Below, piece by piece: positions 4,048-30,237 of a stretch of 64,000 nt of DNA. This DNA is from Candidatus Daviesbacteria bacterium RIFCSPHIGHO2_02_FULL_43_12 (GTDB lineage Bacteria > Patescibacteriota > Microgenomatia > Daviesbacterales > UBA10151), in assembly GCA_001776775.1 (NCBI GenBank), contig MFDD01000014.1, positions 3,684 to 67,683 on the forward strand, in the 5' to 3' direction. Below the pieces are notes generated by a model that was given only the letters and a program-made list of their open reading frames with translations, was not told the origin of the DNA and made no database searches. Made by a program: the position numbers and the translations under genes. The number at the start of each line of letters is the position of its first letter. Position 1 is the first letter of the stretch.

Positions 4048-5037
4048 TTAGGTCGGCTTCATGCGCAAAACCGTCGTAATCGCGTGTATAATCTCTTTGG
4101 TCGTTAATCCGAATTTTTCCAGCAGTTCCTCGGACTCTCCTGATTCTCCGAAGCGGTTAGCTATCCCCACAATCTTCATAGGTACTGGAAACTTTTGGCA
4201 GACCAACTCGGCCACCGCTCCGCCTAATCCACCGGTAACCTGGTGTTCCTCAACTGTCACGATTGCTCCACATTCATCTGTCGCTTCCAGAATGGTTTTT
4301 TCGTCTAAAGGCTTTAAGGTGTGGCAATTAATTACTCGAACAGAAATATTGTGCTCTTTCATTTGTTCGGCTGCCTGCAAGGCTTGATAGACCATTTGAC
4401 CACAGGCGATAATGGCTATATCCTTACCCTCAGCTAAAACTTCGGCTTTACCAATTTGAAAAGGAGTTTGTTCGGTGGAAATGACCGGAGTTTTATCTCG
4501 AGAAAGCCTGAGATAGCTAGGTTGTTTAGTGGCGGCAATAGCCATCGTTGCTTTTTTCGCTTCAATTGAATCCATCGGCACTATCACTACCATATTCGGC
4601 AGAGCCCGCATTAAAGCAATATCTTCTAGGGCCTGATGAGTAGCTCCGTCCGGACCAACAGAGATTCCAGCATGAGAACCAATGATTTTAACCGGCTGGT
4701 CGTTATAACAGATAGTCGTCCTAATTTGTTCCCAGTTTCGTCCAGGAGAGAAGGTCGCATACGAAGCACAAAAGGGGATCTTCCCGGCTGCCGCCAACCC
4801 AGAGGCGACTGTTACTAAGTTTTGTTCCGCCACACCTACTTCAATAAAACGCTCTGGGAATTTGTCTCTAAAGCTTTGCATACGGGTAGATTCGGTGAGG
4901 TCGGCACAAAGAGCGACAACATTGGGACTGCTCTCCCCTGCCAAGACTAACCCCTCTCCAAAGCCATCGCGGGTAGGTACCTTTTCGATATCTTGGTCAA
5001 ATAATTTTGGATTTAAATGAGCTTGTTGATTAATCAT
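4048..5037 (-). CDS. tkt: transketolase, C-terminal (pyrimidine-binding) subunit
   Basis: Matches the Pyr-binding and C-terminal domains of split transketolase. Start overlaps the stop of the N-terminal subunit gene. Confidence 0.85.
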   Translation of the reverse strand: MINQQAHLNPKLFDQDIEKVPTRDGFGEGLVLAGESSPNVVALCADLTESTRMQSFRDKFPERFIEVGVAEQNLVTVASGLAAAGKIPFCASYATFSPGRNWEQIRTTICYNDQPVKIIGSHAGISVGPDGATHQALEDIALMRALPNMVVIVPMDSIEAKKATMAIAATKQPSYLRLSRDKTPVISTEQTPFQIGKAEVLAEGKDIAIIACGQMVYQALQAAEQMKEHNISVRVINCHTLKPLDEKTILEATDECGAIVTVEEHQVTGGLGGAVAELVCQKFPVPMKIVGIANRFGESGESEELLEKFGLTTKEIIHAITTVLRMKPT

Positions 5038-5888
5038 TCATGCTCCGATCTGATCTTTCCTGCCAAAGTTCGTAGCTTGTGCAAGGCTATTTTAGCTTCT
5101 TTAGCGTTGGGGGGTTTACCGTGCCATTCAAACTTGTTTTCCATAAAGTCTACTCCCTTACCCGGGATGGTATGAGCAATAATCATGGTTGGTTTCTCAA
5201 AGATAACCTTAGCCCGCTCTACTCCGTCGATAATCTCCTGCATATTATGACCATTGATTTCGATGACGGTCCAGCCAAAGGCCTCGTATTTTGCCCTAAT
5301 GTTTTCTAAAGGCATGATCTCCTCGGTAAATCCATCAATCTGGATATTATTACGATCCATAATCGCAGTCAGATTATGCAGTTTGTACTTTCCCGCCAAC
5401 ATCACGGCTTCCCAGGTATTTCCTTCATCATGCTCACCATCAGACATTAAGCAATAGGTATGCCAGGAGGCCTGATCCATTCGGGCGGCCAGTGCCATAC
5501 CACTTGCCTGAGACAACCCAGAACCAAGCGGTCCGGAAGTAGTTTCAAGCCCTGGCAGCGACTCACGGTGGGGGTGTCCCTGCAACCTGGTACCTAGCTT
5601 GCGTAAGGTACTCAACTCGTCAACCGGAAAAAAACCACGGTGGGCCAAGGTTGCATATAAAACTGGACAGATATGTCCATTGGATAAAACCAATCTATCC
5701 CGATCTGGTTTTTGGGGATTATTGGGATCAATCTTTAGGATATGAAAGTACAAAGCGGTGAAGATATCCGCCATCCCCAAAGGACCAGCCGAGTGACCTG
5801 ATCCAGCTGCCAGCAACATTTTAATAACACTTTGACGGATTTGAGTTGCCTTTAGTTCGAGATCAATAAACTCCTGGGCAGTTAGCAT
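5034..5888 (-). CDS. tkt: transketolase, N-terminal (TPP-binding) subunit
   Basis: Contains a GDGE-type ThDP-binding motif region (MSDGEHDEG) and the HP..HPHRE motif of the transketolase N-terminal domain. Confidence 0.85.
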   Translation of the reverse strand: MLTAQEFIDLELKATQIRQSVIKMLLAAGSGHSAGPLGMADIFTALYFHILKIDPNNPQKPDRDRLVLSNGHICPVLYATLAHRGFFPVDELSTLRKLGTRLQGHPHRESLPGLETTSGPLGSGLSQASGMALAARMDQASWHTYCLMSDGEHDEGNTWEAVMLAGKYKLHNLTAIMDRNNIQIDGFTEEIMPLENIRAKYEAFGWTVIEINGHNMQEIIDGVERAKVIFEKPTMIIAHTIPGKGVDFMENKFEWHGKPPNAKEAKIALHKLRTLAGKIRSEHE

Positions 5889-5900
5889 ATATTAAGTGTA

Positions 5901-6593
5901 TCAAGTTTTGGTATGAATAACCTCTGGTTTAGTAGAATCAGATTCTCTGGTTGGCTCAATATTCGCGCTTTTTCCGGCTGCTAATTCTTGCTTAAACTGT
6001 TCAATAGCCTCAAGAACTTGGTCGGCGGAGCTGACAATTTTAAAGACTTTTAACTCCTCCGGCCGGAGCAGCATATTCTTGCGGAAAGCATCAGTAATTT
6101 CATGCCAGAAATCGCCATATAAAATAAGCGGCTTATGGTGACCAAAATAAAGACGCGCCAACCCCCAGGCCATGCCAAATTCCGAGATCGTGCCCGTCCC
6201 TCCATTGAAAACCACATATACCTGTCCTTGCTCCATAAGAGTCAAGGTTCGTTCGATATAAGTTGTTGTCTTGATCTCTTTGTCAAAAATATTTTTCGGA
6301 TCTCGACCCTCAAAATGGGTCATGTCTCTGGGATGAAGAGTTACCGCAAGCACCTCGCCCCCACCCTGTTTGGCCCCGACGGTAGCAGCTCTCATCACTC
6401 CTGGCCCTCCGCCATCCACCACTACATAACCGGCCTCGGCTAGTCTTTTACTAACCGCAACGACGCTTTCATAAAGCTCACCATCTTCCGGAGCATCAGC
6501 ATAACCAAAGATTGCTACTTGTTTGATAGTTACAGTTTCCGGAAGTTTATTAGGCCGAAAGAGTTCTGCGAATTTTTTTAAAATTTTCATCAA
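5901..6593 (-). CDS. LOG family protein (TIGR00730 Rossmann-fold nucleotide-binding / cytokinin riboside 5'-monophosphate phosphoribohydrolase-like)
   Basis: Contains GGGPGVMRA...GGTGTISEF motifs. Confidence 0.75.
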   Translation of the reverse strand: MMKILKKFAELFRPNKLPETVTIKQVAIFGYADAPEDGELYESVVAVSKRLAEAGYVVVDGGGPGVMRAATVGAKQGGGEVLAVTLHPRDMTHFEGRDPKNIFDKEIKTTTYIERTLTLMEQGQVYVVFNGGTGTISEFGMAWGLARLYFGHHKPLILYGDFWHEITDAFRKNMLLRPEELKVFKIVSSADQVLEAIEQFKQELAAGKSANIEPTRESDSTKPEVIHTKT

Positions 6594-7191
6594 AATCTCC
6601 TTTCAACAATCCTGAACCTATGGCTAAGTAATCCACCCCAGCTTCTTGAAGAGCTTTGCTATTCTTCGAGTTGACCCCTCCGTCATCTCCTACTTGAATA
6701 TTCCACCGTTTTTTGATCTGGCGAATTTTCTCCAAAGCAGCTACTGAAAATTCCCTACCCTGCGCACCTGGCTCAGCAGACATCACTAGCACACTATCTA
6801 TTATGTCCATAAAAGGAGCCAGAGATTCAATAGGTGTTCCTAAGTTCAGAGACAACCCTACTTGTATATGCATGGCCTTGGTTTTTTGAATAAATTGACT
6901 TATCTGTCCCTCTCCAACCTCGACTGGCGCGACAATACGGTGAACCGGAATCTTTGATAGTTTTTCTACCCAGCTGGCCGGGTCTGCTACTAATAATTGA
7001 ATCTCCTTTTTAAAGACGTTAGGATACTTGATTAGTATATCGGGGTCGATACTTTTATTGGAAACGAACTTTCCATCCATCAAATCGATTTGGATCCAAT
7101 CTCCGTCAAAAAGCTTACTTTGTATAACTTTGGTAATCTGTTCTTGGTAAATTTCTTCTGAGGTAGCAAGTATTGCGGGAAGAATTTGCAT
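6550..7191 (-). CDS. rpe: ribulose-phosphate 3-epimerase
   Basis: IQIDLMDGKFV, VLVMSAEPGAQGREF and VGDDGG match the Rpe motifs (HxDVMDGHFVPN, VLVMSVNPGFGGQ, VDGG). Confidence 0.7.
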   Translation of the reverse strand: MQILPAILATSEEIYQEQITKVIQSKLFDGDWIQIDLMDGKFVSNKSIDPDILIKYPNVFKKEIQLLVADPASWVEKLSKIPVHRIVAPVEVGEGQISQFIQKTKAMHIQVGLSLNLGTPIESLAPFMDIIDSVLVMSAEPGAQGREFSVAALEKIRQIKKRWNIQVGDDGGVNSKNSKALQEAGVDYLAIGSGLLKGDFDENFKKIRRTLSA

Positions 7192-7193
7192 AA

Positions 7194-7691
7194 TTAACGC
7201 TTTTCTATATCAGATATTTTTTGAATCCTTCGAACGTGTCTCTCTGCATTATTAAAAGAGGTTGCCAGCCATAGCTTAACAGCTTGCTTGGCCTCTTCGC
7301 TGCTGACGAAACGAGCACCAATGGATAAAATATTGGCATCGTTATGCTCCCGAGATAGTCGGACAATCTCAAGCGGATCACTACTTTCCCTGCCCCCAAT
7401 TTCCGGTGACTCCAGTGGAGCCTTTTCACCATAAAAGACAGCTGCCCTAACATGAGCAAATTTATTAGCCACAATTGCCTCGCCTTGACCCGATCCTCCA
7501 AAAATAATCCCTCTGGCGGATGGATCACGCGAGACTGCCTCAGCGGCTTTACTAATGAAATCGGGAAAGTCATCGTCAGCTTCGAACTGGGTTGCCCCGC
7601 AATCGGTGGTAGCAATTTCCCGTTCCTCCAGCCAGTTTTTTATTTGGTCTTTGAGCGCTAGCCCGGCGTGATCGGAAGCGAGATAAATCAT
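7194..7691 (-). CDS. rpiB: ribose-5-phosphate isomerase B
   Basis: N-terminal MIYLASDHAGLALK is typical of the RpiB/LacAB family. 165 aa. Confidence 0.85.
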   Translation of the reverse strand: MIYLASDHAGLALKDQIKNWLEEREIATTDCGATQFEADDDFPDFISKAAEAVSRDPSARGIIFGGSGQGEAIVANKFAHVRAAVFYGEKAPLESPEIGGRESSDPLEIVRLSREHNDANILSIGARFVSSEEAKQAVKLWLATSFNNAERHVRRIQKISDIEKR

Positions 7692-20463: not shown

Positions 20464-21453
20464 CTACTGGTAAATTTTCTCCCATTTATAATTTGCATAA
20501 ACCCAATCCATCAGTCTTTTTGTCTCCCCAAAACGATCTCGGCTATTTAAGACAACTGTAATAACTTTATGCTCAGATCTTTCTACCAGCCCCACAAAAT
20601 TTTCACCAGCCTTTTCGGTGGAACCGGTTTTAATACCGAGTACACCATCAGCTGAAAGCAGTTCATTTAAGTTCTTGAGGCTATGTAGATATGATTTATC
20701 CCAAGCAGAGACAAATGTCTCTTTTGTTGCCACTACCTTAGCCAGCTGGGGATTTTCTACAGCTAGTTTGGCAATTATTGCCAAATCATAAGCGCTACTG
20801 AAGTGATTATCCGAATCAAAACCTGCGGGATTATCAAAATGAGTATCAGCTAGCTTCATTTCCGAAACCTTACTATTCATCGCCGCTACAAAGGCAGGTA
20901 AACCTCCGGGAAAGTTGCTGGCGATCGTAAAAGCTGCATCGTTTCCAGAATTCAGTAACATCCCATAAAGCAAGCTTCTAAAGGATAGCTTCTCACCTAT
21001 TTTCAGACCCATATTAGAGCCACCAACATTATCTATCGGATAAACTGTCAGGACGTCTGCTGGCCTAAAATAATTTGTGGCGATTATTCCGGTCATAATT
21101 TTGGTAGTTGAGGCCGGAGCTAACCTTTCATGAATATTTTCTTCGAAAAGGATCTGTCCTGTCTCTACATCCATCGCCAAAACGGATTGAGATTGAAAAA
21201 CAGGAGCAGGAATTTTCTGATCAGTTATCTGCAGTTTTAACTGTCTGGTCTCTCCTAATATATCTGCTGTCAGCTGAGATTGGTTAGCACCATACGCAGT
21301 AACTGCGATTAGATCCCTCTCGGTTAAACGGATTAATTTAGGAAATGCCACTAGCCCTAAAGTAGTTAATCCAAAAATAGCCAATAGAAAAATAGATAAA
21401 AGAAAAACCCTCATATAAGTTTTGGCTAAGAACAGTTGTATTTTTTTACGCAT
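20464..21453 (-). CDS. dacA: D-alanyl-D-alanine carboxypeptidase (peptidase S11, PBP5 family)
   Basis: SxxK (ASTTK), SxN (LNSGND) and KTG (IKTGST) motifs. N-terminal TM anchor. Confidence 0.8.
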   Translation of the reverse strand: MRKKIQLFLAKTYMRVFLLSIFLLAIFGLTTLGLVAFPKLIRLTERDLIAVTAYGANQSQLTADILGETRQLKLQITDQKIPAPVFQSQSVLAMDVETGQILFEENIHERLAPASTTKIMTGIIATNYFRPADVLTVYPIDNVGGSNMGLKIGEKLSFRSLLYGMLLNSGNDAAFTIASNFPGGLPAFVAAMNSKVSEMKLADTHFDNPAGFDSDNHFSSAYDLAIIAKLAVENPQLAKVVATKETFVSAWDKSYLHSLKNLNELLSADGVLGIKTGSTEKAGENFVGLVERSEHKVITVVLNSRDRFGETKRLMDWVYANYKWEKIYQ

Positions 21454-21496: not shown

Positions 21497-22882
21497 TTAA
21501 GATGACTTTTTGGGTTTAAGAGTTAACCCGAGCTCATCAAGCTGCTCAGGCTCAGCCGGAGTTGGAGCATTCATAACCGCTGTCACCCCTGTTGAAGAAG
21601 CTGGGAAGGCAATCACTTCCCGGATAGTTGTTTCATGACATAAGATAGCTACCAGTCTATCCAAGCCCCAAGCGATACCTCCATGTGGAGGAGTTCCAAA
21701 AGAAAAAGCTTTAAGCATATGTCCAAAATTTTTGGAAATATCCTCTTTACTAAATCCCATTATCTCAAAGACCTTTTCGAGATCCTCGGCTTTGTGATTT
21801 CGGATACTACCTCCGCCTATTTCAAATCCATTGAGAACCACATCGTATTGAGTGGTCAGAATTTGATCAATATTTTCGCCCCTTTCTAGCCATTCTTGAT
21901 GTTCTGGTTTGGCAGCAGAGAACGGATTATGAGTAAAGGTCCAACCTCCAGAATCGGCTTTTTCAAAGAAAGGAAAGTCCGTTACCCAGCAAAAAGCTAA
22001 AAGATTTGGGTCCTTCTTATCAGTGCGGATATCCGGCCTATCTGTACCGTACTTTTGCATCGCTTCTTTATAAGATATTCTCGGGAAGGGAATTTCTTGA
22101 ATCTTTTTTTCTGGACAAAGTTTTTCTACCAAACTAATTAATAATTTTTCATTCAAGGCCATCACGTCTTCTTGCTCCACAAAGGATAGCTCCATGTCCA
22201 ACTGAGTAAACTCTAGCTGCCTGTCCTTACGAGTATCTTCGTCTCGGAAACAGCGAGCTATTTGAAAATATCTCTCGAACCCCGCAACCATTAGTAGTTG
22301 TTTGTACTGCTGAGGGCTTTGCGGAAGGGCATAAAAATTACCGCTATGCATTCTGGAAGGGACCAAGAAGTCTCTCGCTCCCTCGGGTGTAGCTTTGGTT
22401 AAAATAGGTGTTTCTATTTCTATAAATTCATCGTCTGTTAGCCAGTTGCGTAGAAAAGAAATTATTTTGTGTCTTTGGCGAATATTACTTGTGAGTCTGT
22501 TTCGGCGAAGATCTAAATAGCGATACTCAAGTCTTGTTTCTTCTCCAATATCATAGCCTTCTCCTTCGAGAGGAAATGGAGATGTTTGAGAAGGGGAGAC
22601 TAGCTCAACTTTTTGGGCAGAAAGTTCTATTTCCCCGGTGGGAATATTTGGATTAATTAATTTTTCCGGACGTTTATTTATTTGTCCGGTGATTTTGACC
22701 ACACTTTCTGGGGTAATCCCTTGTAACATCTCACCGGTTACAAAAATTTGGATGAATCCTGACCTATCTCGCAGATCAATAAAGCCGATCTTGCCGTGAC
22801 TACGAATAGTCTGCACCCAACCCAAAAGAGTTGCTTGCTGACCTACTTTTTGCAGACAATCAAGGGCGAGAGTACGCTCCAT
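21497..22882 (-). CDS. aspS: aspartyl-tRNA synthetase (short form lacking GAD insertion domain)
   Basis: QSPQQYKQLLMV, class II motif 2 FRDEDTRKDRQLEFTQLD and motif 3 GLDRLV. 461 aa. Confidence 0.85.
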   Translation of the reverse strand: MERTLALDCLQKVGQQATLLGWVQTIRSHGKIGFIDLRDRSGFIQIFVTGEMLQGITPESVVKITGQINKRPEKLINPNIPTGEIELSAQKVELVSPSQTSPFPLEGEGYDIGEETRLEYRYLDLRRNRLTSNIRQRHKIISFLRNWLTDDEFIEIETPILTKATPEGARDFLVPSRMHSGNFYALPQSPQQYKQLLMVAGFERYFQIARCFRDEDTRKDRQLEFTQLDMELSFVEQEDVMALNEKLLISLVEKLCPEKKIQEIPFPRISYKEAMQKYGTDRPDIRTDKKDPNLLAFCWVTDFPFFEKADSGGWTFTHNPFSAAKPEHQEWLERGENIDQILTTQYDVVLNGFEIGGGSIRNHKAEDLEKVFEIMGFSKEDISKNFGHMLKAFSFGTPPHGGIAWGLDRLVAILCHETTIREVIAFPASSTGVTAVMNAPTPAEPEQLDELGLTLKPKKSS

Positions 22883-22886
22883 AAAA

Positions 22887-23813
22887 TTATTTTGGATTAA
22901 CTTTCGTTACCCAATCCGAGTATTTTTCCAATTCACCGTGTACCAATTTATAAAATAGATCTTTTAATTTTGTCCCTACTTCTCTACTCTCACCCAAAGG
23001 CCGATGGTCAATCTCGGCAATGGGAGTTACTTCTGCGGCAGTGCCAGTCAAAAAAGCTTCATCAGCACTATATATTTCAGAGCGGTCTATGCTTCTTTCT
23101 ATAGCCTGTAGCCCCAGCTCTTTGGTGCAAAGCTTAATCACCGTATCCCTGGTTATACCGACTAAAGTATCGTCTGAGACGGGAGGTGTAATAACCACGC
23201 CATCTTTAATCATAAAAATATTTGATGAGCTACTTTCCACAACATGTCCTCTGTCGTCTAGTACCAGCGCGTCATCATATCCATTTAGCTGAGCTTCTGT
23301 TTTTGTTAAACAGGTATTAATGTAAGCTCCTGTAATTTTACCTCGAGGTGGTATAGCATTATCCGATACTCTTCTCCATGAGCTAATACCCAATCTTACC
23401 CCTTTTTCAGAGTCCAAATACTTACCCATCGGGACATTATACATAATGATACTATCTTGCAGAGTTGGTAGTTTAAAGTTGCCAACAGCCGGGTCGGATT
23501 TGAAAGCTAGGGGTCGAACATACATATCTGTTTCGGTGAAATTTCTTTGCAATAGTTCAACTACAAAACCGCACATCTCATCTACTGTATAGGGAATATC
23601 AATAAAAACAATTTTGGCTGATTGTTTCATTCTTTTAAAATGATCTTCCAGCCGAAAGGCGAAAAAGCACTTATCTTTCTCGCTATAATAAGCTCTAATC
23701 CCTTCAAAAACGCCCGTTCCATAATGCAGGGCATGCGCAGTTACCGGAATAACCGCTTTGGCTTCTGGTACAAATTTTCCATTTACAAAAAAGGTCCTAG
23801 TCATGTTTTGCAC
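22887..23813 (-). CDS. ilvE: class IV (branched-chain / D-amino acid) PLP aminotransferase
   Basis: Length and N-terminal FVNGKFVPEAKAVIP...GTGVFEGIRAY are typical of the BCAT/DAAT fold IV. Confidence 0.7.
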   Translation of the reverse strand: MQNMTRTFFVNGKFVPEAKAVIPVTAHALHYGTGVFEGIRAYYSEKDKCFFAFRLEDHFKRMKQSAKIVFIDIPYTVDEMCGFVVELLQRNFTETDMYVRPLAFKSDPAVGNFKLPTLQDSIIMYNVPMGKYLDSEKGVRLGISSWRRVSDNAIPPRGKITGAYINTCLTKTEAQLNGYDDALVLDDRGHVVESSSSNIFMIKDGVVITPPVSDDTLVGITRDTVIKLCTKELGLQAIERSIDRSEIYSADEAFLTGTAAEVTPIAEIDHRPLGESREVGTKLKDLFYKLVHGELEKYSDWVTKVNPK

Positions 23814-24078
23814 CCTCCTGTTCCTCTATTGTATAAGCAATACTAAAAAAAGTCATCCAGATCTTTGCAATAATCTCTTTGGTTAAGCCAAGGGCTTTTC
23901 CTTGGACAGCCAAGCTATCTATTCTTTCCTGCTCGCGAGCTGGATCTTTAATCGGTTTACCTACCAACTTTTTATATTCCCCAACTTTTTTCACCACTTC
24001 AATCCTTTGACTAATTAAGTCTAATAATTTGGCGTCTATTTGATCAATCGCTTTTCTCAGTTGATTTAAGTCTTCCAT
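23797..24078 (-). CDS. chorismate mutase (AroQ class)
   Basis: 93 aa with LRKAIDQIDAKLLDLISQRIEVVKKVGEYK, an AroQ-type helix-bundle signature. Confidence 0.7.
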   Translation of the reverse strand: MEDLNQLRKAIDQIDAKLLDLISQRIEVVKKVGEYKKLVGKPIKDPAREQERIDSLAVQGKALGLTKEIIAKIWMTFFSIAYTIEEQEGAKHD

Positions 24079-24833
24079 TAAATCCCTCTTAGTGCAGTTA
24101 CTAAACCTGCATCTGGATTTGTAGTATATCTTGCTTGAAAGTTTAGAGCAAGATAATCCTGCTCAGAAGGCGGGAGCTGCACTCCTACAGCTCGGAATCT
24201 TTCTATACCTCTACCAAAGTTTGGATTAAGCATCACTCCCCTCCTTGTGAGCTCAGTCACACCCCTCCATGAGTCATTTAAAAAGCTTAACCCTGATCGC
24301 AGAATCTGACCATAAGCTACTACCTTGTATGCGCCTTGTTCAGTCTGTTGTGCCAAAAAAATATCCACTCCGGTGATTTTAGTCAGCCCATCAGAAAGAG
24401 GCTTATTCGTTGGAACATATAAGGCCTCCAATGCTCTAAGTAGTCCTCTAGTTGGTTCGGTTGTTGCAGTCAGGGCCTGTCTAACTTTTGAATGCCTTAA
24501 AGTATGTTCTCCTAGTTGGCTTAGATGAGCTATGGCATCACTTTGCCCTTCCAAAGCTCGGGTCACTAAACTATCTAAGAATCCTGTTAGGATTAACTGA
24601 TTTTCCGGAGAGCACTGAAACCCAACACAGGCTGCTGGTTGACCTTTTCCATGAACGGTACATATAGCTCCCTCCCTTTCCATTTTCAACAAAGGACATG
24701 CTACATTTGCTGATTTATCTATCTCGTAGATCGTTAATAATTTGCAACAAAGTCCACAGTCGCAATCTCCCCCATGAATTGTTTGGCTTGATCTTTCTTG
24801 TGCAGCGCTATTTAACATTTTATACTCCTCCAA
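24078..24833 (-). CDS. hypothetical protein with N-terminal CxCxxCC metal-binding (YkgJ/UPF0153-like) domain
   Basis: GGDCDCGLCCK...CPLL...CTVHG...CVGFQC cysteine pattern; the rest is unrecognised. Confidence 0.4.
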   Translation of the reverse strand: MEEYKMLNSAAQERSSQTIHGGDCDCGLCCKLLTIYEIDKSANVACPLLKMEREGAICTVHGKGQPAACVGFQCSPENQLILTGFLDSLVTRALEGQSDAIAHLSQLGEHTLRHSKVRQALTATTEPTRGLLRALEALYVPTNKPLSDGLTKITGVDIFLAQQTEQGAYKVVAYGQILRSGLSFLNDSWRGVTELTRRGVMLNPNFGRGIERFRAVGVQLPPSEQDYLALNFQARYTTNPDAGLVTALRGI

Positions 24834-26451
24834 TCACTTTGATTACTGGACAATATTGTTTAAGAATATTTAGTGCTTGATCCATCCGTTCATCGTTAGT
24901 AGAAACTTCTACTTCAATGAAGAAGTGGTAATCCCAAACTTTTTCTCTGCTCGGCCGGGATTCAATTTTAGATAAATTAATATTGCTGCTGGCAAAAACA
25001 TTGAGAATATCTCGTAAAATACCTACCCTATTAAATACTGTTAAAAAAAGCAGTGTCCGGGAAGTGGGGATAGATAATTTATTAATATCCTTGGAGATAA
25101 CATAAAACTTTGTAACGTTACTTTTATTATCCTCAATACCTTTTCGCAAAACAGGAATATTATTTAACTTGGCAGCAAGTAGTGGACTTATAAAGGCTAC
25201 GCCTAGCTCATTTCTGTGCTCTTTGATACTAGAAACAGTACTAGAGGCAGTCTCCATGTTGACATTTGGTAAATGTTCCCTGAGCCAGTTTCTACATTGA
25301 GCCAAAGCCTGGGGATGAGAATATACTTTAGTAATATTTTTTAGAGATTTTTCTTCGGAAAGTAAGTTTTGTTGAATCGGTAAGTTCAGCGAACCATTTG
25401 TTCTCATATCAAAATCTATCAAAAAGTCCAGCGTTTCTCTGACGGTTCCTTCGGTGGAATTCTCTGCCGGAACTATTCCAAAATCGGCTTGTAAACTTTT
25501 GACTGCTTCAAAGATTTTTAAGAAATTCTCACAAGGGAGAAGCTGGCTCTCTTTGGCAACAGTTAAGGAAATCTGATGAGAGAATGTTCCCTGGGGACCA
25601 AGGTAAGCTATTTTTCCTTTGAGTTTCTGGGGTAGGTCTTTTTGTTTTATGCTTGTCGCTTGTTGCTTGTTGCTTGTTCCTTTAGGAGTCGAGTCGATAC
25701 TCCTATGAATTTTTTCAATTAATTTATGAAGTTTTTCTCTATCACCATTTTTTAGTTCCTGAAGAAACTCTTGCTGAGTTTTGATGAAATCATTTAGTAC
25801 AGATAGCCCTTCACTATTTCCCAATTGAATTTCTGTCAATAGCTCTGGTGGTTGCGAAATTACTCGACTAAGGGTAGCCATTTGCGCGAGGAAAGGTGGG
25901 GTAGAAACTTTTCCCCCCAAGTCTATTTTATTTTTCAGTAAAACCTTGGCTAAGTTTAGATTTACAAAATGAGTTAGATTTTGCAGGTGAGCCATATATA
26001 GATCATGACTTTTTGACGACATTTCAATAATTTCGGCTCCAGCATTTTTAAGCACCACTTTAAGTTTGTCCAGTAGAGTGCTTTTTTTAATAACACTTAA
26101 AACAACTTTTTGGTTTTGGATGGACGATACTGTTGGACCAAAAAGTAAATGTAAACCTGCTGCGGGTTGGGGTATTTGCGATAGGGTTTTTGCGACTGCC
26201 TGTTGAACAGAAGAAAGATCAACAATTAAAGTATTTCTTTTAGCTCTTTTAGAAATATCCAAAATTACATCTTTGGCTTTGGAAATAGGGACCGAGACAA
26301 AAATAATCTCACTAGATTTTAGAGTACTATCTTCAACACCTTTAGAACCACTGACACTAACCAAAACCCTTTGGCTTTCTAAAAAGTTTCTTAGCCAATT
26401 CCCCATCTGTCCAGTCCCTCCAATAATATGTACTTTTAGATTTCTATTCAT
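24820..26451 (-). CDS. fusion protein: prephenate dehydrogenase (TyrA) N-terminal + prephenate dehydratase (PheA PDT domain) + ACT domain
   Basis: N-terminal Rossmann motif IIGGTGQMG and SHDLYMAHLQNLTHF (TyrA). C-terminal YLGPQGTFSHQ...ENSTEG...ESRPSR (PDT with ESRP motif) plus ACT. Confidence 0.7.
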   Translation of the reverse strand: MNRNLKVHIIGGTGQMGNWLRNFLESQRVLVSVSGSKGVEDSTLKSSEIIFVSVPISKAKDVILDISKRAKRNTLIVDLSSVQQAVAKTLSQIPQPAAGLHLLFGPTVSSIQNQKVVLSVIKKSTLLDKLKVVLKNAGAEIIEMSSKSHDLYMAHLQNLTHFVNLNLAKVLLKNKIDLGGKVSTPPFLAQMATLSRVISQPPELLTEIQLGNSEGLSVLNDFIKTQQEFLQELKNGDREKLHKLIEKIHRSIDSTPKGTSNKQQATSIKQKDLPQKLKGKIAYLGPQGTFSHQISLTVAKESQLLPCENFLKIFEAVKSLQADFGIVPAENSTEGTVRETLDFLIDFDMRTNGSLNLPIQQNLLSEEKSLKNITKVYSHPQALAQCRNWLREHLPNVNMETASSTVSSIKEHRNELGVAFISPLLAAKLNNIPVLRKGIEDNKSNVTKFYVISKDINKLSIPTSRTLLFLTVFNRVGILRDILNVFASSNINLSKIESRPSREKVWDYHFFIEVEVSTNDERMDQALNILKQYCPVIKVIGGV

Positions 26452-26939
26452 TTTATTCTTTCTCGGCTAGCTCCTATTCCTCTTGAAAACCTGCTACATC
26501 TAACTTCTAAAAGATTGCTTTTATTTATCCTAAAGGATCCTCTTCTGGCACTGGGATCTATCGGTACCAAATAATCATGTCCATGCGGAGTATTCCCTTC
26601 TTCTTGTCCGAAGAGTGTTAACGCTTCTTGAACAGCTCTCTTTGCATCGCTGATCTGTTTTGCTAATGGGACATCTGCTGTATTCTGTATTAAAGGTGCT
26701 AATGGATCCATTTGAACAAGAGCAAAATATTGTCCATCTATTTTCATGATCCTTACACCTATCACTAAATCAGACGGAAGTCTCATTAGTCTTCCTGACC
26801 CATGGTAGCCTATCGGATCTCCAACTCGAAGACATTGCGCCGGAGCAAGATCTTTAAGAAATTGAAAGACAGATAATTTTTCACCCGTCCTTTTAGATGC
26901 TTTTCCTTCTCTGACTGTTCTATGAATTAAAATTTCCAT
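26448..26939 (-). CDS. hypothetical protein (first gene of the Phe/Tyr operon)
   Basis: ORF only. ATGA overlap with the downstream TyrA-PheA gene. Confidence 0.4.
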   Translation of the reverse strand: MEILIHRTVREGKASKRTGEKLSVFQFLKDLAPAQCLRVGDPIGYHGSGRLMRLPSDLVIGVRIMKIDGQYFALVQMDPLAPLIQNTADVPLAKQISDAKRAVQEALTLFGQEEGNTPHGHDYLVPIDPSARRGSFRINKSNLLEVRCSRFSRGIGASRERIK

Positions 26940-26950
26940 ATTTTTCCAAT

Positions 26951-26972
26951 AAAAAACCCCGCATCTGCGGGG
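26951..26972 (-). terminator. intrinsic terminator of the aromatic leader (attenuator), 9 nt upstream of the operon ATG
   Basis: Minus strand reads CCCCGCagatGCGGGG followed by TTTTTT. Confidence 0.65.
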
Positions 26973-27001
26973 CCTCTTTGAGTCTTGGTCTTTTTAAAAG
27001 A

Positions 27002-27073
27002 CTACGACAGATGCCCCTCCTTTCGGAAGTTAAAGTTAAAGTAAAACCAAAAATTATTTACAATCTGTTTCAT
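27002..27073 (-). CDS. leader peptide MKQIVNNFWFYFNFNFRKEGHLS (aromatic-codon-rich attenuator peptide)
   Basis: 23-aa ORF between a canonical promoter and an intrinsic terminator. Seven of nine consecutive codons are Phe/Trp/Tyr. Confidence 0.55.
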   Translation of the reverse strand: MKQIVNNFWFYFNFNFRKEGHLS

Positions 27074-27101
27074 AACTAAAGTGTAGCTTAGCAAATAAAG
27101 G

Positions 27102-27129
27102 ATTATATGTCAAATAATACAGCATTCAA
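27102..27129 (-). promoter_or_regulatory. sigma70-like promoter TTGAAT-16-TATAAT driving the aromatic leader
   Basis: Reverse complement of 27124-27129 is TTGAAT and of 27102-27107 is TATAAT. Spacer is 16 nt. Confidence 0.55.
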
Positions 27130-27160
27130 ATAACTTGGCTTGCGTTGTATAATCAGTATA

Positions 27161-27532
27161 ATGAAATTCATTAATAGCTCGAAAGCTCCAGCAGTTGTAG
27201 GACCATATTCCCATGCTATAGTTAGCAATGGAATGGTTTACCTTTCTGGGTCGATAGGAGTAGATCCACAAACTGGAGATTTGGCAGAAGGAATAGAGAA
27301 TCAAACGAAACAGGTATTAGCCAATTTAAAAGCAGTCTTGAAAGATGCAGGGAGTTCTGTAGATAAAATTGTTTCAGCAAATTGCTATTTGCAAAGCATG
27401 GAAGATTATGCAAAGTTTAACCATGTATATGGTGAATTTTTCGGAAATCACAAACCCGCTCGAACAACGATTGAAGTAGCAGCATTACCAAGAAAAGCGC
27501 TTGTCGAAATATCTTTTATCGCCGAGATTTAA
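27161..27532 (+). CDS. ridA: RidA/YjgF/TdcF family reactive-intermediate (enamine/imine) deaminase
   Basis: PAVVGPYSHAIVSNGMVYLSGSIG...ARTTIEVAALP are RidA motifs. Start set at ATG 27161. A TATAAT at 27148-27153 suggests a leaderless mRNA. Confidence 0.8.
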   Translation: MKFINSSKAPAVVGPYSHAIVSNGMVYLSGSIGVDPQTGDLAEGIENQTKQVLANLKAVLKDAGSSVDKIVSANCYLQSMEDYAKFNHVYGEFFGNHKPARTTIEVAALPRKALVEISFIAEI

Positions 27533-27539
27533 CTAATAT

Positions 27540-27568
27540 TTGACAAATTTAATCGCTTTGCTTAAAAT
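27540..27568 (+). promoter_or_regulatory. sigma70-like promoter TTGACA-17-TAAAAT immediately after ridA
   Basis: TTGACA at 27540-27545 and TAAAAT at 27563-27568. Confidence 0.55.
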
Positions 27569-27575
27569 ACATTTT

Positions 27576-27650
27576 ATGTTTAGAAAGATTTTAAATCTTA
27601 ACCTCATTATAGAGCTCCTTAGCAGGAGCAAATCAGGGAGGTTTGTTTAA
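27576..27650 (+). CDS. leader peptide MFRKILNLNLIIELLSRSKSGRFV (Leu/Ile-codon-rich attenuator peptide)
   Basis: 24-aa ORF whose stop codon lies inside the antiterminator 5' strand. Codons run ILNLNLIIELL. Confidence 0.45.
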   Translation: MFRKILNLNLIIELLSRSKSGRFV

Positions 27651-27681
27651 GTATTTTTAAAAATACTTAAGAAAGGAATAA

Positions 27682-27704
27682 CCTCCCACTCGGGAGGTTT
27701 TTTT
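27682..27704 (+). terminator. intrinsic terminator of the Leu/Ile-type leader, 8 nt upstream of the downstream ATG
   Basis: CCTCCCactcGGGAGG followed by TTTTTTT. The 5' strand is shared with the alternative pairing GGGAGGTT(27636-27643)/AACCTCCC(27680-27687). Confidence 0.65.
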
Positions 27705-27712
27705 ATACCAAA

Positions 27713-29296
27713 ATGACAGCAATTATAAACGAGCGACAGGGTGCAAGACCCAGCACTCCCCAACAAAGAGCTGCAACGGTTTTTCTGAGGGATAGATTCA
27801 ATGCCTTTGATGAGAGATGGCTTGTTGGACACAAAGGGGACCATGCTTCTAACCTGCATGACCTGGGAATCATTGGTCAGAGAGTTCATGTTGCCCATGT
27901 ACATAGTACTCTTGGTGTTGATGCAGATCGGACTTACAAACCGCCAGAAGAAACCTCTGATTCCTATGAGGGACTCCTGACAGGAGCTAATCCCGGATTG
28001 TCCGGAGAGGTAAGCAGAGTAAGAGCTGCACAAATGAGGGTTGTAGTTCTAATGCCTTTTCCCAACTCCGACTTTGAGGGTATGATTGCAAGAGCAAAGG
28101 CAGGAAGATATTTCGTTTCAACAGCGCCGATAGAAAGTTTCGAAACTTTTGAACCAATCGAGAACAAGATATCCTTTGCCAGAATACTTCAGGCAGCTTT
28201 ACAAGGAACTCCTCATACGAGAAATCTAATTCCCTGGACCATACATCAACCTCATTGGGGATTAGATGACGTTAGGCGGAATATGGGAGTAGACCCAGGG
28301 AGTGCAATTTTCTTTCAAAAAGCTATCTCAGGTGGAGGAGATGGGACAGCAAGGGTGAATGATCGATCCAACTTTAATGAACTTTTAAGTAACCCCTCTT
28401 GGATGCAGGCAGCTCGACGAGGGAAACTAAAGGCCTCAATGGCAGTAGAAGGTGCTTATCCAGCAAATGGAACCGGATGTATCGTACCTACCCCGGATGG
28501 CGGTTGCAAAGTTTTGGTTGATCCATTATCTCATAAGCCTGTTGGGTTAGAGAGTGTTGGAGCAAAACCAGGTAGCGGAGCCGGTAATGACTGGGGTACG
28601 CCTTTCCCTAGAGCTGTTACCGATCAATATATTGCAATGGTTTCTCGTCTAGGAAAGTATTTTTATACTACTTTTGGCTACACTGGTATTTTTGGTCCAG
28701 ATGGATTAGTTGGAGCAGATTCAACCTATCGTATGACGGAAAGTAACTCCAGATGGCAAGGTACTACTCCATATCAAACTCAAAATGCTTTGATGAATGG
28801 ACGTTTGCCGATCGAGCTGATACATTACATGGTTAAACTTTCAGTAAATGACTCTCACTTACTTGGACAAGTCAATGATATCGTTGGAGATGCAGACTCT
28901 TATAATCAAAGAGCCTTCACAGAAAGAGGAGGGTTTTATATTAAAGTTGGAGGGCCTAAAACCAAGAAGGAAGTTAGGGAGGACTTAAATGGACCATGGC
29001 GGTGGGATGGAGATCGGTTACATAGACTAAAAAGAGATGGATATTTAACACCTATGCGAATTTATACGAGAGATTACGCAGGAGCTCAAGACCTAACTAA
29101 AGATGATAAAACCGTCTGGATTAAGGCACCTAAGGTAGGCGAGGTTGTAGGAGGAGGATTAGTGGCTGTCGGATACATAACAGGTAGCGATATAAATGTC
29201 TTTGATGCAAATAAGCCAGAGGTTACTTCGGACGGGCATAAGTTATATACTCAAATGAACCAGTTGATGTATAGCCAACGGAGTTCATGGAAATAA
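27713..29296 (+). CDS. hypothetical 527-aa protein, no recognisable family
   Basis: Long ORF whose GC content and codon usage look somewhat higher than neighbouring genes. No signal peptide. Overlaps the downstream AstE/AspA-like gene by 10 nt. Confidence 0.5.
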   Translation: MTAIINERQGARPSTPQQRAATVFLRDRFNAFDERWLVGHKGDHASNLHDLGIIGQRVHVAHVHSTLGVDADRTYKPPEETSDSYEGLLTGANPGLSGEVSRVRAAQMRVVVLMPFPNSDFEGMIARAKAGRYFVSTAPIESFETFEPIENKISFARILQAALQGTPHTRNLIPWTIHQPHWGLDDVRRNMGVDPGSAIFFQKAISGGGDGTARVNDRSNFNELLSNPSWMQAARRGKLKASMAVEGAYPANGTGCIVPTPDGGCKVLVDPLSHKPVGLESVGAKPGSGAGNDWGTPFPRAVTDQYIAMVSRLGKYFYTTFGYTGIFGPDGLVGADSTYRMTESNSRWQGTTPYQTQNALMNGRLPIELIHYMVKLSVNDSHLLGQVNDIVGDADSYNQRAFTERGGFYIKVGGPKTKKEVREDLNGPWRWDGDRLHRLKRDGYLTPMRIYTRDYAGAQDLTKDDKTVWIKAPKVGEVVGGGLVAVGYITGSDINVFDANKPEVTSDGHKLYTQMNQLMYSQRSSWK

Positions 29297-30237
29297 CAGA
29301 GATAAAAACCAACATTGGAAATACAGCCTCAGGGACACCTCTGCTAATCAACGGCTACCATCTTAAGGGTTCTCATCCCGGGAAAAAGATATATATACAA
29401 GGAGGTATTCATGGAGGTGAAGTTACTATTTGGATTTTTCAAGAATTATTTAAATACTTTTCTGAACATGAGATCCAGGGTGAGGTTTTTTTAATCCCCG
29501 TAGCTAACCCTGTTGCTTGGAATCAGCGTATTTACTTTAGTACTTTAGGTAAATTTGATTTCTATATGGGTAAAGACTGGAATCGAAACTTTCCAGGAAA
29601 TGAAGATGGCACTCTTGGAGAAAGGATTGCTAAAAAACTTTTTGATATTGCTTCAAGAGCAGATTTTATTATCGATCTTCATACATCGAGAGATAGTTTC
29701 CCATTTGCAATATTATCTTCTAAAAATGATCTCGCATACGCGCAGAAGATTGGACTTGAATATAACCTTCTATTAGATCTCGACGATCCTAAGTTTAGTA
29801 GCTATAGAAGTACACTAACAGGTCAGGGAAGCTTATCAAATGCTCCTAGTATTGCCATAGAGTGCGGGAGGCATGACTCCTATAATGAAGAATACTGCAA
29901 AGAAGTTACCAACGGTTTACTTCGCTTAATGAGCCACCTCGGCATTATCAATGACAAAAAGATTCCTCCTACAACTAAAAAGGTAAAATATTATTCAAGG
30001 TTAAAAACCTATAGATCCCCCAATGGTGGGTTCATAAAATTCAATAAGCATGCGGGAGATGAATACAAGAAAGGGGAAATTTTATTTGAGCTTATTAACC
30101 CGTCTGATCTAGGTTCTGCAACTGTAGTGTTCGCCGAAGAAGATGGAATTCTGCAAAAGAAGTCCCCAACTTTTATCTATATGCCAGGTGATGACGTCCT
30201 TGAAGTATTACCGCTTACTAATATAAAGTTCATATAA
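29287..30237 (+). CDS. succinylglutamate desuccinylase/aspartoacylase (AstE/AspA) family zinc hydrolase (M14-like)
   Basis: N-terminal zinc-site GGIHGGE (H-x-x-E), second His in IDLHTS, and ECGRHDS; about 316 aa. Confidence 0.6.
   Translation: MEITEIKTNIGNTASGTPLLINGYHLKGSHPGKKIYIQGGIHGGEVTIWIFQELFKYFSEHEIQGEVFLIPVANPVAWNQRIYFSTLGKFDFYMGKDWNRNFPGNEDGTLGERIAKKLFDIASRADFIIDLHTSRDSFPFAILSSKNDLAYAQKIGLEYNLLLDLDDPKFSSYRSTLTGQGSLSNAPSIAIECGRHDSYNEEYCKEVTNGLLRLMSHLGIINDKKIPPTTKKVKYYSRLKTYRSPNGGFIKFNKHAGDEYKKGEILFELINPSDLGSATVVFAEEDGILQKKSPTFIYMPGDDVLEVLPLTNIKFI

Follow-up and report, generated by a model that had tools for sequence, protein, structure and literature searches.

We describe here a compact minus-strand operon (26939..22887) of a Candidatus Daviesbacteria bacterium, a member of the candidate phyla radiation (CPR), that lies in the window, the 64-kb stretch of contig MFDD01000014.1 that was analysed. 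Together with the leader that precedes it, the operon very probably constitutes an attenuator-controlled transcription unit for the post-chorismate branch of phenylalanine and tyrosine synthesis in Candidatus Daviesbacteria, built on a bifunctional protein in which prephenate dehydrogenase (TyrA), prephenate dehydratase (PheA, PDT) and ACT domains are joined in one polypeptide; the case for this comes from sequence comparisons throughout. Its five open reading frames (ORFs) are tightly coupled, with each junction overlapping by 1 to 17 nucleotides (nt), and their coordinates are collected in Table 1 together with those of the leader elements and the mapped active-site residues.

All four domains of the 543-residue fusion protein score above their Pfam cut-offs: PDH_N at residues 42-142 (36.8 bits against a cut-off of 26.5), PDH_C at residues 146-245 (46 against 22), PDT at residues 281-455 (193 against 25.2) and ACT at residues 467-530 (48.3 against 27). 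The NCBIfam prephenate dehydratase equivalog NF008865 is also matched (237.9 against a cut-off of 219), as are NCBIfam prephenate dehydrogenase models, and the TyrA half aligns with the solved Haemophilus influenzae TyrA (2pv7) with an E value of 1.7e-22. The Rossmann fold starts at residue 6 and the GGTGQMG motif occupies residues 11-17. Pfam finds no chorismate mutase (CM_2) domain in the protein, including the linker at residues 256-279. The original prediction, made from the letters and a list of ORFs, took the N-terminal domain for TyrA rather than for a different NAD-binding enzyme, and the domain search that it proposed came out for TyrA, with Pfam, NCBIfam, the 2pv7 alignment and the active-site residues in agreement. 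Its assignment of the C-terminal part to a prephenate dehydratase with an ESRPSR motif, followed by ACT, is likewise borne out by the Pfam scores and by the presence of E497-S-R-P-S-R (E497-R502).

The residue roles described for H. influenzae TyrA (PMC2954222) were mapped onto the fusion through the 2pv7 alignment, and conservation was read from an alignment with 15 diverse relatives at 40-64% identity. S81, H101, H149 and D150 are invariant across these relatives and H161 is nearly so; the position of R197 is occupied by Arg in 13 of the 15, by Lys in one and by Ser in one. H161 was also considered as the catalytic histidine, a role ruled out by the residue-by-residue alignment with 2pv7, which points to H101. 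A non-acidic residue at 'position 222' accompanies a preference for prephenate, as a statistical rule (PMC5681985), and Q201 at this position is non-acidic, as in the prephenate-preferring clade II TyrA enzymes (PMC5681985). The position of H. influenzae Asp131, which binds the adenosine ribose, is Gly in the fusion, so that use of NADP+ is possible. For the C-terminal half we considered the TRF, ESRP and GALV motifs, whose roles have been described (PMC13217925); ESRP is invariant in 15/15 sequences, and the GALV position reads G477-I-L, so that this motif is partly kept. Both halves appear to match the residue sets of known enzymes, with the key catalytic residues of dehydrogenase and dehydratase conserved.

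The fusion is a large uncharacterised family that is typical of Microgenomates-type CPR and is present in at least one archaeon of the DPANN group. The four-domain architecture recurs, at 41-64% identity, in more than 120 clusters formed at 90% identity, and Candidatus Daviesbacteria contigs from three independent assemblies are 100% identical to the window; the fusion is therefore not an assembly artefact. A census was made of the best 150 matches in a library of 50%-identity representatives, among which at least 77 representatives have PDH followed by PDT with a linker under 70 residues. An insert of 70 residues or more is present in five of the 150, four of which contain CM_2 (the Archaeoglobus type; P0169, P0175, P0176 and P0215, with gaps of 104-114 residues), and seven of the 150 have the reversed order PDT-ACT-PDH. 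A rough neighbor-joining analysis, which is only indicative, clusters the TyrA and PheA domains congruently and places most of the chorismate mutase-containing and reversed forms apart. Among GTDB species representatives the fusion is found in about 25 genomes, its carriers including Daviesbacteria, Levyibacteriota, Microgenomates, and one 'Parcubacteria' and one 'Saccharibacteria' metagenome-assembled genome (MAG). Eleven fusion-bearing MAGs bear the label 'uncultured Gammaproteobacteria' but show the synteny of Daviesbacteria and Levyibacteria. A single locus, L020, is genuinely archaeal: after the fusion come ADH synthase and DHQ synthase II, by which archaea reach dehydroquinate.

The 543-residue protein falls outside the archaeal trifunctional, T-protein and P-protein classes, just as its leader falls outside the Rfam Phe_leader family. 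The enzymes of Archaeoglobus fulgidus and Nanoarchaeum equitans have been characterised biochemically as PD-CM-PDT proteins, that is, with a chorismate mutase between the two branch enzymes. A TyrA-AroQ-PheA-ACT multifunctional protein has been described in A. fulgidus (PMC1173090), and this multi-fusion has been called unique to Archaeoglobus and Ca. Huberarchaea (PMC11237513). It shares with the Daviesbacteria fusion a single polypeptide with TyrA first and PheA-ACT last, and a TyrA of the E. coli/archaeal type, but its CM_2 domain is replaced here by a linker of ~25 residues, the chorismate mutase is a separate downstream gene, and the host is a CPR bacterium. The dehydrogenase domain resembles that of the E. 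coli and H. influenzae T-protein (AroQ-TyrA) in aligning to 2pv7 with key residues, and the PDT-ACT half resembles the P-protein (AroQ-PheA) in matching NF007910 over its PDT-ACT part. However, neither half has an N-terminal chorismate mutase, the branch enzymes are instead joined to each other, and nothing in the fusion corresponds to the additional C-terminal helix (Arg365') of T-proteins; NF008400 and NF007910 are matched far below cut-off and only over their parts outside the chorismate mutase. Saccharibacteria loci L030 and L040 (tyrA, aroQ-pheA, class IV aminotransferase) have the same gene order, the same aminotransferase class and a CPR host, but encode a separate 241-residue TyrA, with the chorismate mutase fused to PheA as in a classical P-protein. 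Their two TyrA proteins cluster apart from the TyrA domain of the fusion in the rough neighbor-joining analysis. A tblastn reading of Saccharibacteria loci as trifunctional fusions was abandoned, because tyrA stands there as an ORF of its own, ahead of an aroQ-pheA gene. The searchable literature held no paper on a natural TyrA-PheA fusion without chorismate mutase, only E. coli deletion strains. The fusion can thus be called unusual, as the original prediction had it, in relation to textbook arrangements, but not in relation to the CPR and DPANN, where the family is large, and a chorismate mutase-containing archaeal cousin is already published (PMC1173090, PMC11237513).

The other enzymes of the branch are encoded downstream of the fusion, as had been predicted. 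The 93-residue product matches CM_2 (75.1 bits against a cut-off of 27), and the aminotransferase matches Aminotran_4 (170.9 bits) and the IlvE equivalogs NF005146 (350.1 against 279) and TIGR01122 (313 against 245); the latter gene likely starts at ATG 23804 (305 residues). Judging from the domain families and conserved residues, the stand-alone AroQ mutase would convert chorismate to prephenate, which the N-terminal domain of the fusion would oxidatively decarboxylate to 4-hydroxyphenylpyruvate with NAD(P)+, and which the C-terminal domain would dehydrate and decarboxylate to phenylpyruvate. Both keto acids would then be converted to tyrosine and phenylalanine by the IlvE-like class IV aminotransferase, whose role in aromatic transamination we infer from the operon context. 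Control at the enzyme level would come from phenylalanine bound by the ACT domain through the ESRP and GALV-type motifs, and from tyrosine competing at the dehydrogenase active site, where H161 would be the counterpart of the histidine of tyrosine inhibition.

Related genomes support a place for this gene block in aromatic biosynthesis. The order of fusion and chorismate mutase genes, often followed by the aminotransferase gene, is kept in more than 20 genomes, with aroQ directly 3' of the fusion in nearly all related loci, and the class IV aminotransferase is kept in the aromatic operon of Daviesbacteria, Levyibacteria and Saccharibacteria. The Levyibacteria order is DAHP synthase-aroB-aroQ(DHQase II)-aroA-aroK-aroE-aroC-fusion-chorismate mutase-aminotransferase-pheS-pheT, and other Daviesbacteria have RecJ, then the leader, DAHP synthase, fusion, chorismate mutase, aminotransferase or aroB, aroA, aroK and aroE. 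Because the fusion block of relatives sits in a complete shikimate operon, a biosynthetic role is supported, and the predicted chorismate-to-Phe/Tyr operon stands. In both the window and a sister species (locus L005, fusion 64% identical), DAHP synthase is gone from the operon, and no shikimate-pathway genes were found in its vicinity. Across Levyibacteria loci L012-L019 (for example L019, 155-11934), all seven shikimate steps, the fusion, chorismate mutase, aminotransferase and pheS-pheT form one string, which in L019 is preceded by an aromatic leader peptide, MKQFNNRKITFWFYFTS. The class IV aminotransferase gene of the sister species is split into two overlapping ORFs (L005, 6097-7247), which may reflect a frameshift, a pseudogene or a sequencing error.

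Just upstream of ORF163, the first gene, and outside the region covered by the original prediction, lies a leader (27113..26951, minus strand) with the anatomy of a classical attenuator. It encodes a short peptide with the run FWFYFNFNF, in which five Phe, one Trp and one Tyr account for seven of nine consecutive codons. Aromatic-rich leader peptides precede the operon in the window and in 10 related loci (for example MDRKISKWFSYFSFYFRKEGVF and MKTLANSFWFYFTS), and the same leader design stands before the first gene of the operon in the 10 related genomes, where the surrounding nucleotides have diverged. The TTGACA of the promoter-like site is shared with the sister locus L005. In 8/8 aligned leaders, all five base pairs of hairpin 1:2 keep the same nucleotides, even at wobble positions. 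If region 1 is masked before region 4 has been transcribed, the 2:3 pairing is the minimum-free-energy fold (-20.1 kcal/mol). Although the sequences differ between species, each species has a region 2 that complements the 5' arm of its terminator. Cognate 2:3 duplexes have a mean of -14.3 kcal/mol, compared with -11.1 for cross-species duplexes and -6.5 when region 2 is shuffled, and only 6/20000 permutations equal the cognate strength. At the position of the middle hairpin every related leader has a hairpin of different sequence. The terminator is kept in 11/11 leaders with two compensatory base-pair changes and 94.3% of cells paired, a value reached in 0/500 shuffles, and there is no same-strand upstream gene that could own it. 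Covariation supports both the predicted 2:3 pairing and the terminator.

From this anatomy we infer a ribosome-mediated attenuator. A shortage of charged tRNA for Phe, Tyr or Trp would make the ribosome stall on the FWFYFNFNF run and mask region 1; region 2 would pair with region 3, no terminator would form, and the operon would be read. A ribosome that reaches the stop codon would cover region 2, so that the 3:4 terminator would form 11 nt before the first gene. The coordinates fit this scheme, in that a stall at F8 to F14 would cover region 1 and leave region 2 free. Among Rfam families, RF01859 Phe_leader matches best, along the whole length of the model (27074..26948, minus strand; E = 6e-4), and the likeness to the enterobacterial pheA attenuator extends to the short Phe-rich ORF, the overlapping 1:2, 2:3 and 3:4 hairpins and the terminator before a biosynthetic gene. 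The leader differs in mixing Trp and Tyr codons with those for Phe, in its Patescibacteria host, and in that its counterparts in relatives would control DAHP synthase and the whole pathway. A T-box or riboswitch reading was dropped, since no Rfam family reaches threshold in the leader.

The leader ORF has no Shine-Dalgarno sequence, and a conserved extended -10-like element lies only 8-11 nt before its ATG (window 27085-27073), reading TGnTATACT in loci L003, L004, L006, L007 and L009 and TAAGCT in the window. The mRNA from which the peptide is translated may thus have almost no 5' leader of its own.

Table 1. Coordinates of the operon, its leader and the genes that follow, with the mapped dehydrogenase residues of the fusion.
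Feature	Coordinates	Strand	Description
ORF163	26939..26448	-	163 residues; species-specific orphan
tyrA-pheA fusion gene	26451..24820	-	543 residues; prephenate dehydrogenase, prephenate dehydratase and ACT
TyrA domain	25687..26451	-	residues 1-255; Pfam, 2pv7 alignment, invariant columns
Inter-domain linker	25615..25686	-	residues 256-279; low-complexity, variable among relatives
PheA catalytic domain	25087..25614	-	residues 280-455; Pfam PDT, PDB matches 4lub, 3mwb, 2qmx
ACT regulatory domain	24823..25053	-	residues 467-543; G477-I-L, E497-S-R-P
ORF251	24833..24078	-	251 residues; orphan between fusion and chorismate mutase genes
aroQ chorismate mutase	24078..23797	-	93 residues; monofunctional, AroQ-class
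Class IV (IlvE-like) aminotransferase	23813..22887	-	308 residues
Promoter-like site	27085..27113	-	TTGACA (27113..27108), 17-nt spacer, TAAGCT (27090..27085); consensus matches only
Alternative promoter-like match	27129..27102	-	TTGAAT-16-TATAAT; consensus scan
Leader peptide ORF	27002..27073	-	23 codons and stop; MKQIVNNFWFYFNFNFRKEGHLS
Hairpin 1:2	27016..27029	-	CUUCC-GAAA-GGAGG; overlaps last Phe codon and R-K-E codons; minimum-free-energy fold
Region 2 (antiterminator 5' strand)	27006..27020	-	GGGGC...UCU; pairs with region 3 (26979..26969)
Middle hairpin	26988..27002	-	GUCUUU-UAA-AAAGAC; directly after leader stop codon
Intrinsic terminator (3:4)	26951..26972	-	CCCCGC-AGAU-GCGGGG and U6; ends 11 nt before ORF163 start codon
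aspS	22882..21497	-	461 residues; 4 nt past aminotransferase stop; outside pathway
S11 peptidase	21453..20464	-	43-nt gap after aspS; outside pathway
S81 (H. influenzae Ser179)			active site; orients substrate and NAD; 2pv7 alignment
H101 (H. influenzae His200)			catalytic His; 2pv7 alignment
H149/D150 (H. influenzae His248/Asp249)			relay; 2pv7 alignment
H161 (H. influenzae His260)			corresponds to the His that inhibition by Tyr requires in E. coli and A. aeolicus
R197 (H. influenzae Arg297)			carboxylate binding; 2pv7 alignment
Q201 (H. influenzae Gln301; Gln227 of M. harundinacea enzyme)			'position 222' specificity site

Two uncharacterised proteins had been counted as parts of the operon, and although both ORFs are present they are species-specific and not conserved operon components. 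Among 5.8 billion proteins ORF163 has no homologue except a 95%-identical strain copy, and ORF251 matches only itself; neither has a Pfam match even at E = 10 or a match in PHROGs or PADLOC, and single-sequence AlphaFold (AF2) predictions gave no usable structure model (pLDDT 39 for ORF163 and 34 for ORF251). Their in-frame codon usage is nonetheless host-like, with +0.08 and +0.12 per codon compared with about -0.5 in the other frames. ORF163 lies where other Daviesbacteria carry DAHP synthase, and was examined as a decayed copy of that gene, a reading dropped because the DAHP synthase profile of relatives found nothing in all six frames. ORF251 is inserted between the fusion and chorismate mutase genes; these two genes adjoin each other in relatives, and the slot is empty in more than 20 of them. 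It most likely starts at ATG 24818 (246 residues), before which a GGAGGAG Shine-Dalgarno sequence (24831..24825) lies within the last codons of the fusion. The CxCxxCC protein of the original prediction can be recognised in ORF251 by its CDCGLCC motif, but it belongs to no matched family; a YkgJ (CxxCxxCC zinc- or iron-chelating) domain was considered and rejected, as the resemblance is by eye and Pfam gives no match at E = 10. The sister species has ORFs of 70 and 154 residues in the same two slots (L005), with no similarity to ORF163 or ORF251, and no flanking repeats suggesting a mobile element are found around the orphan ORFs. We treat both as lineage-specific orphans inserted into the operon rather than conserved parts of the system. 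A 117-residue ORF with a CIQCGACC motif, YkgJ-like by eye and with no NCBIfam match, lies 1.1 kb from the fusion in another genome (L027, 532-885, minus strand), and its likeness to the CDCGLCC of ORF251 is probably a coincidence.

Several observations weigh against an attenuator-controlled phenylalanine and tyrosine unit. Neither tblastn nor profile searches found shikimate-pathway genes in the 64-kb window, nor are there any in the extra DNA at its ends (~5.7 kb on one side and 10 kb on the other), where a weak 'shikimate kinase' match proved to be adenylate kinase. Within the fusion, the equivalents of E. coli Lys178 and of H. influenzae Asp131, Asp206 and Tyr306 are not kept, and the TRF triad reads T447-K448-F449 (TKF); relatives all share T447 but have either R or K in the middle. 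The RF01859 match scores 33.6 where the gathering score is 55, and folding of the whole leader gives a z-score of only -1.9. In a transcript that includes region 4, the terminator is favoured over the antiterminator by 4.6 kcal/mol, so that read-through would need kinetic trapping, as in classical attenuators. Such a unit does not account for the two translationally coupled orphans, ORF163 and ORF251, inside the operon, and a housekeeping gene such as aspS behind a Phe attenuator would be odd, barring an internal promoter.

That no shikimate-pathway genes turned up in the window or in the extra DNA at its ends would fit the view that the lineage of the window and of the sister species has lost DAHP synthase from the operon, and perhaps the whole shikimate pathway, such that the module now takes chorismate, prephenate or aromatic keto acids from outside the cell, or is decaying. 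An orphan ORF stands in place of DAHP synthase in both species, and the split aminotransferase gene of the sister species points the same way; however, the catalytic residues, leader peptide and terminator are all intact and identical in three assemblies, only ~80 kb of the genome is covered, and relatives keep the full pathway, which makes such a relic or salvage module unlikely. ORF163, in the DAHP synthase slot, could itself be a non-homologous replacement for that enzyme, or ORF251, with its Cys cluster, a metal-binding accessory protein, and translational coupling and host-like codon usage would speak for such functions. We regard a role for either ORF in the pathway as highly improbable, given that neither has a homologue outside the species among 5.8 billion proteins or any sign of a family or fold, that the sister species fills both slots with unrelated ORFs, and that the second slot is empty in more than 20 relatives.

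The enzymes could also follow an arogenate route, with the aminotransferase making arogenate from prephenate and the fusion acting as arogenate dehydrogenase and arogenate dehydratase. The aminotransferase gene is kept within the operon in three CPR lineages, and prephenate aminotransferase function reportedly evolved in aminotransferases of several classes (title of Graindorge et al. 2014), of which the branched-chain type is one. Moreover, PDT and arogenate dehydratase are not separable by sequence alone (PMC13217925). Against this, the specificity position is the non-acidic Q201, as in prephenate-preferring clade II TyrA (PMC5681985), prephenate enzymes are the nearest relatives among solved structures and family models, and the branched-chain-type enzymes of Synechocystis had very little prephenate aminotransferase activity (PMC10875765); we consider the arogenate route unlikely. 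We are similarly disinclined to think that the leader acts other than through the ribosome, as a constitutive, protein-controlled or RNA-controlled terminator next to a fortuitous small ORF, although the favoured terminator fold, the missing Shine-Dalgarno sequence and the sub-threshold Rfam score would all be compatible with this. An aromatic-rich small ORF is kept in 11 genomes amid diverged nucleotides, the complementarity of regions 2 and 3 co-varies, and no T-box or riboswitch family matches, all of which argue for ribosome-mediated attenuation.

Downstream of the operon on the same strand, aspS and the S11 peptidase gene follow with gaps of 4 and 43 nt and may be co-transcribed with it; both are likewise next after the operon in the sister locus L005. 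Bacterial aspartyl-tRNA synthetase (AspRS) models match the aspS product in two separate stretches, which suggests that it lacks the large insertion domain of bacterial AspRS. On the other side, between RecJ and the leader, plus-strand genes for RidA, a 527-residue protein without a family match and an AstE/AspA-like protein (27140-30237) look like a lineage-specific insertion, since RecJ directly adjoins the leader in other Daviesbacteria. A metagenome contig (L082, 1-3752) is 99.8% identical to window positions 27343-26506, up to the 3' end of ORF163, and past position 26506 continues into an unrelated phosphodiesterase-family gene; the junction is either a strain-level rearrangement or a chimeric assembly. 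Precomputed Pfam matches for the same contig place a pentose-phosphate cluster at 4048-7691 (minus strand), with ribose-5-P isomerase B, ribulose-P 3-epimerase and a transketolase split into N- and C-terminal genes, which could supply erythrose 4-phosphate. In the archaeal locus (L020, 7926-10788, an Aenigmatarchaeota MAG), the fusion is followed by a 518-residue protein, DHQ synthase II and chorismate mutase. The 518-residue protein has an aspartate-kinase-like N-terminus joined to ADH synthase; joining these two enzymes would couple aspartate semialdehyde supply with the step by which archaea enter the shikimate pathway.

Prephenate is the point where phenylalanine and tyrosine synthesis part, and to our knowledge each of the prephenate branch enzymes is either free-standing or fused to chorismate mutase in the organisms studied. 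The fusion is thus a natural experiment on flux partition and cross-regulation, as well as a ready-made part for aromatic amino-acid engineering. A broader scenario is possible, albeit doubtful when taken as a whole: phenylalanine bound to the single ACT domain would shut the dehydratase and alter the fused dehydrogenase, thereby partitioning prephenate, the module would be ancient and common, by inter-domain transfer, to CPR and DPANN, both of them radiations of ultra-small cells, and the CPR would have put it under an attenuator that governs the entire ten-step pathway in relatives. Known biochemistry is not overturned; the module would work like known enzymes and the known Phe attenuator. 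We know of no earlier description of classical ribosome-mediated attenuation in the CPR, and an attenuator of this kind would imply that transcription and translation are coupled there. The wide spread of the family in Microgenomates-type CPR, together with the complete operon in relatives, argues against a uniformly auxotrophic CPR.

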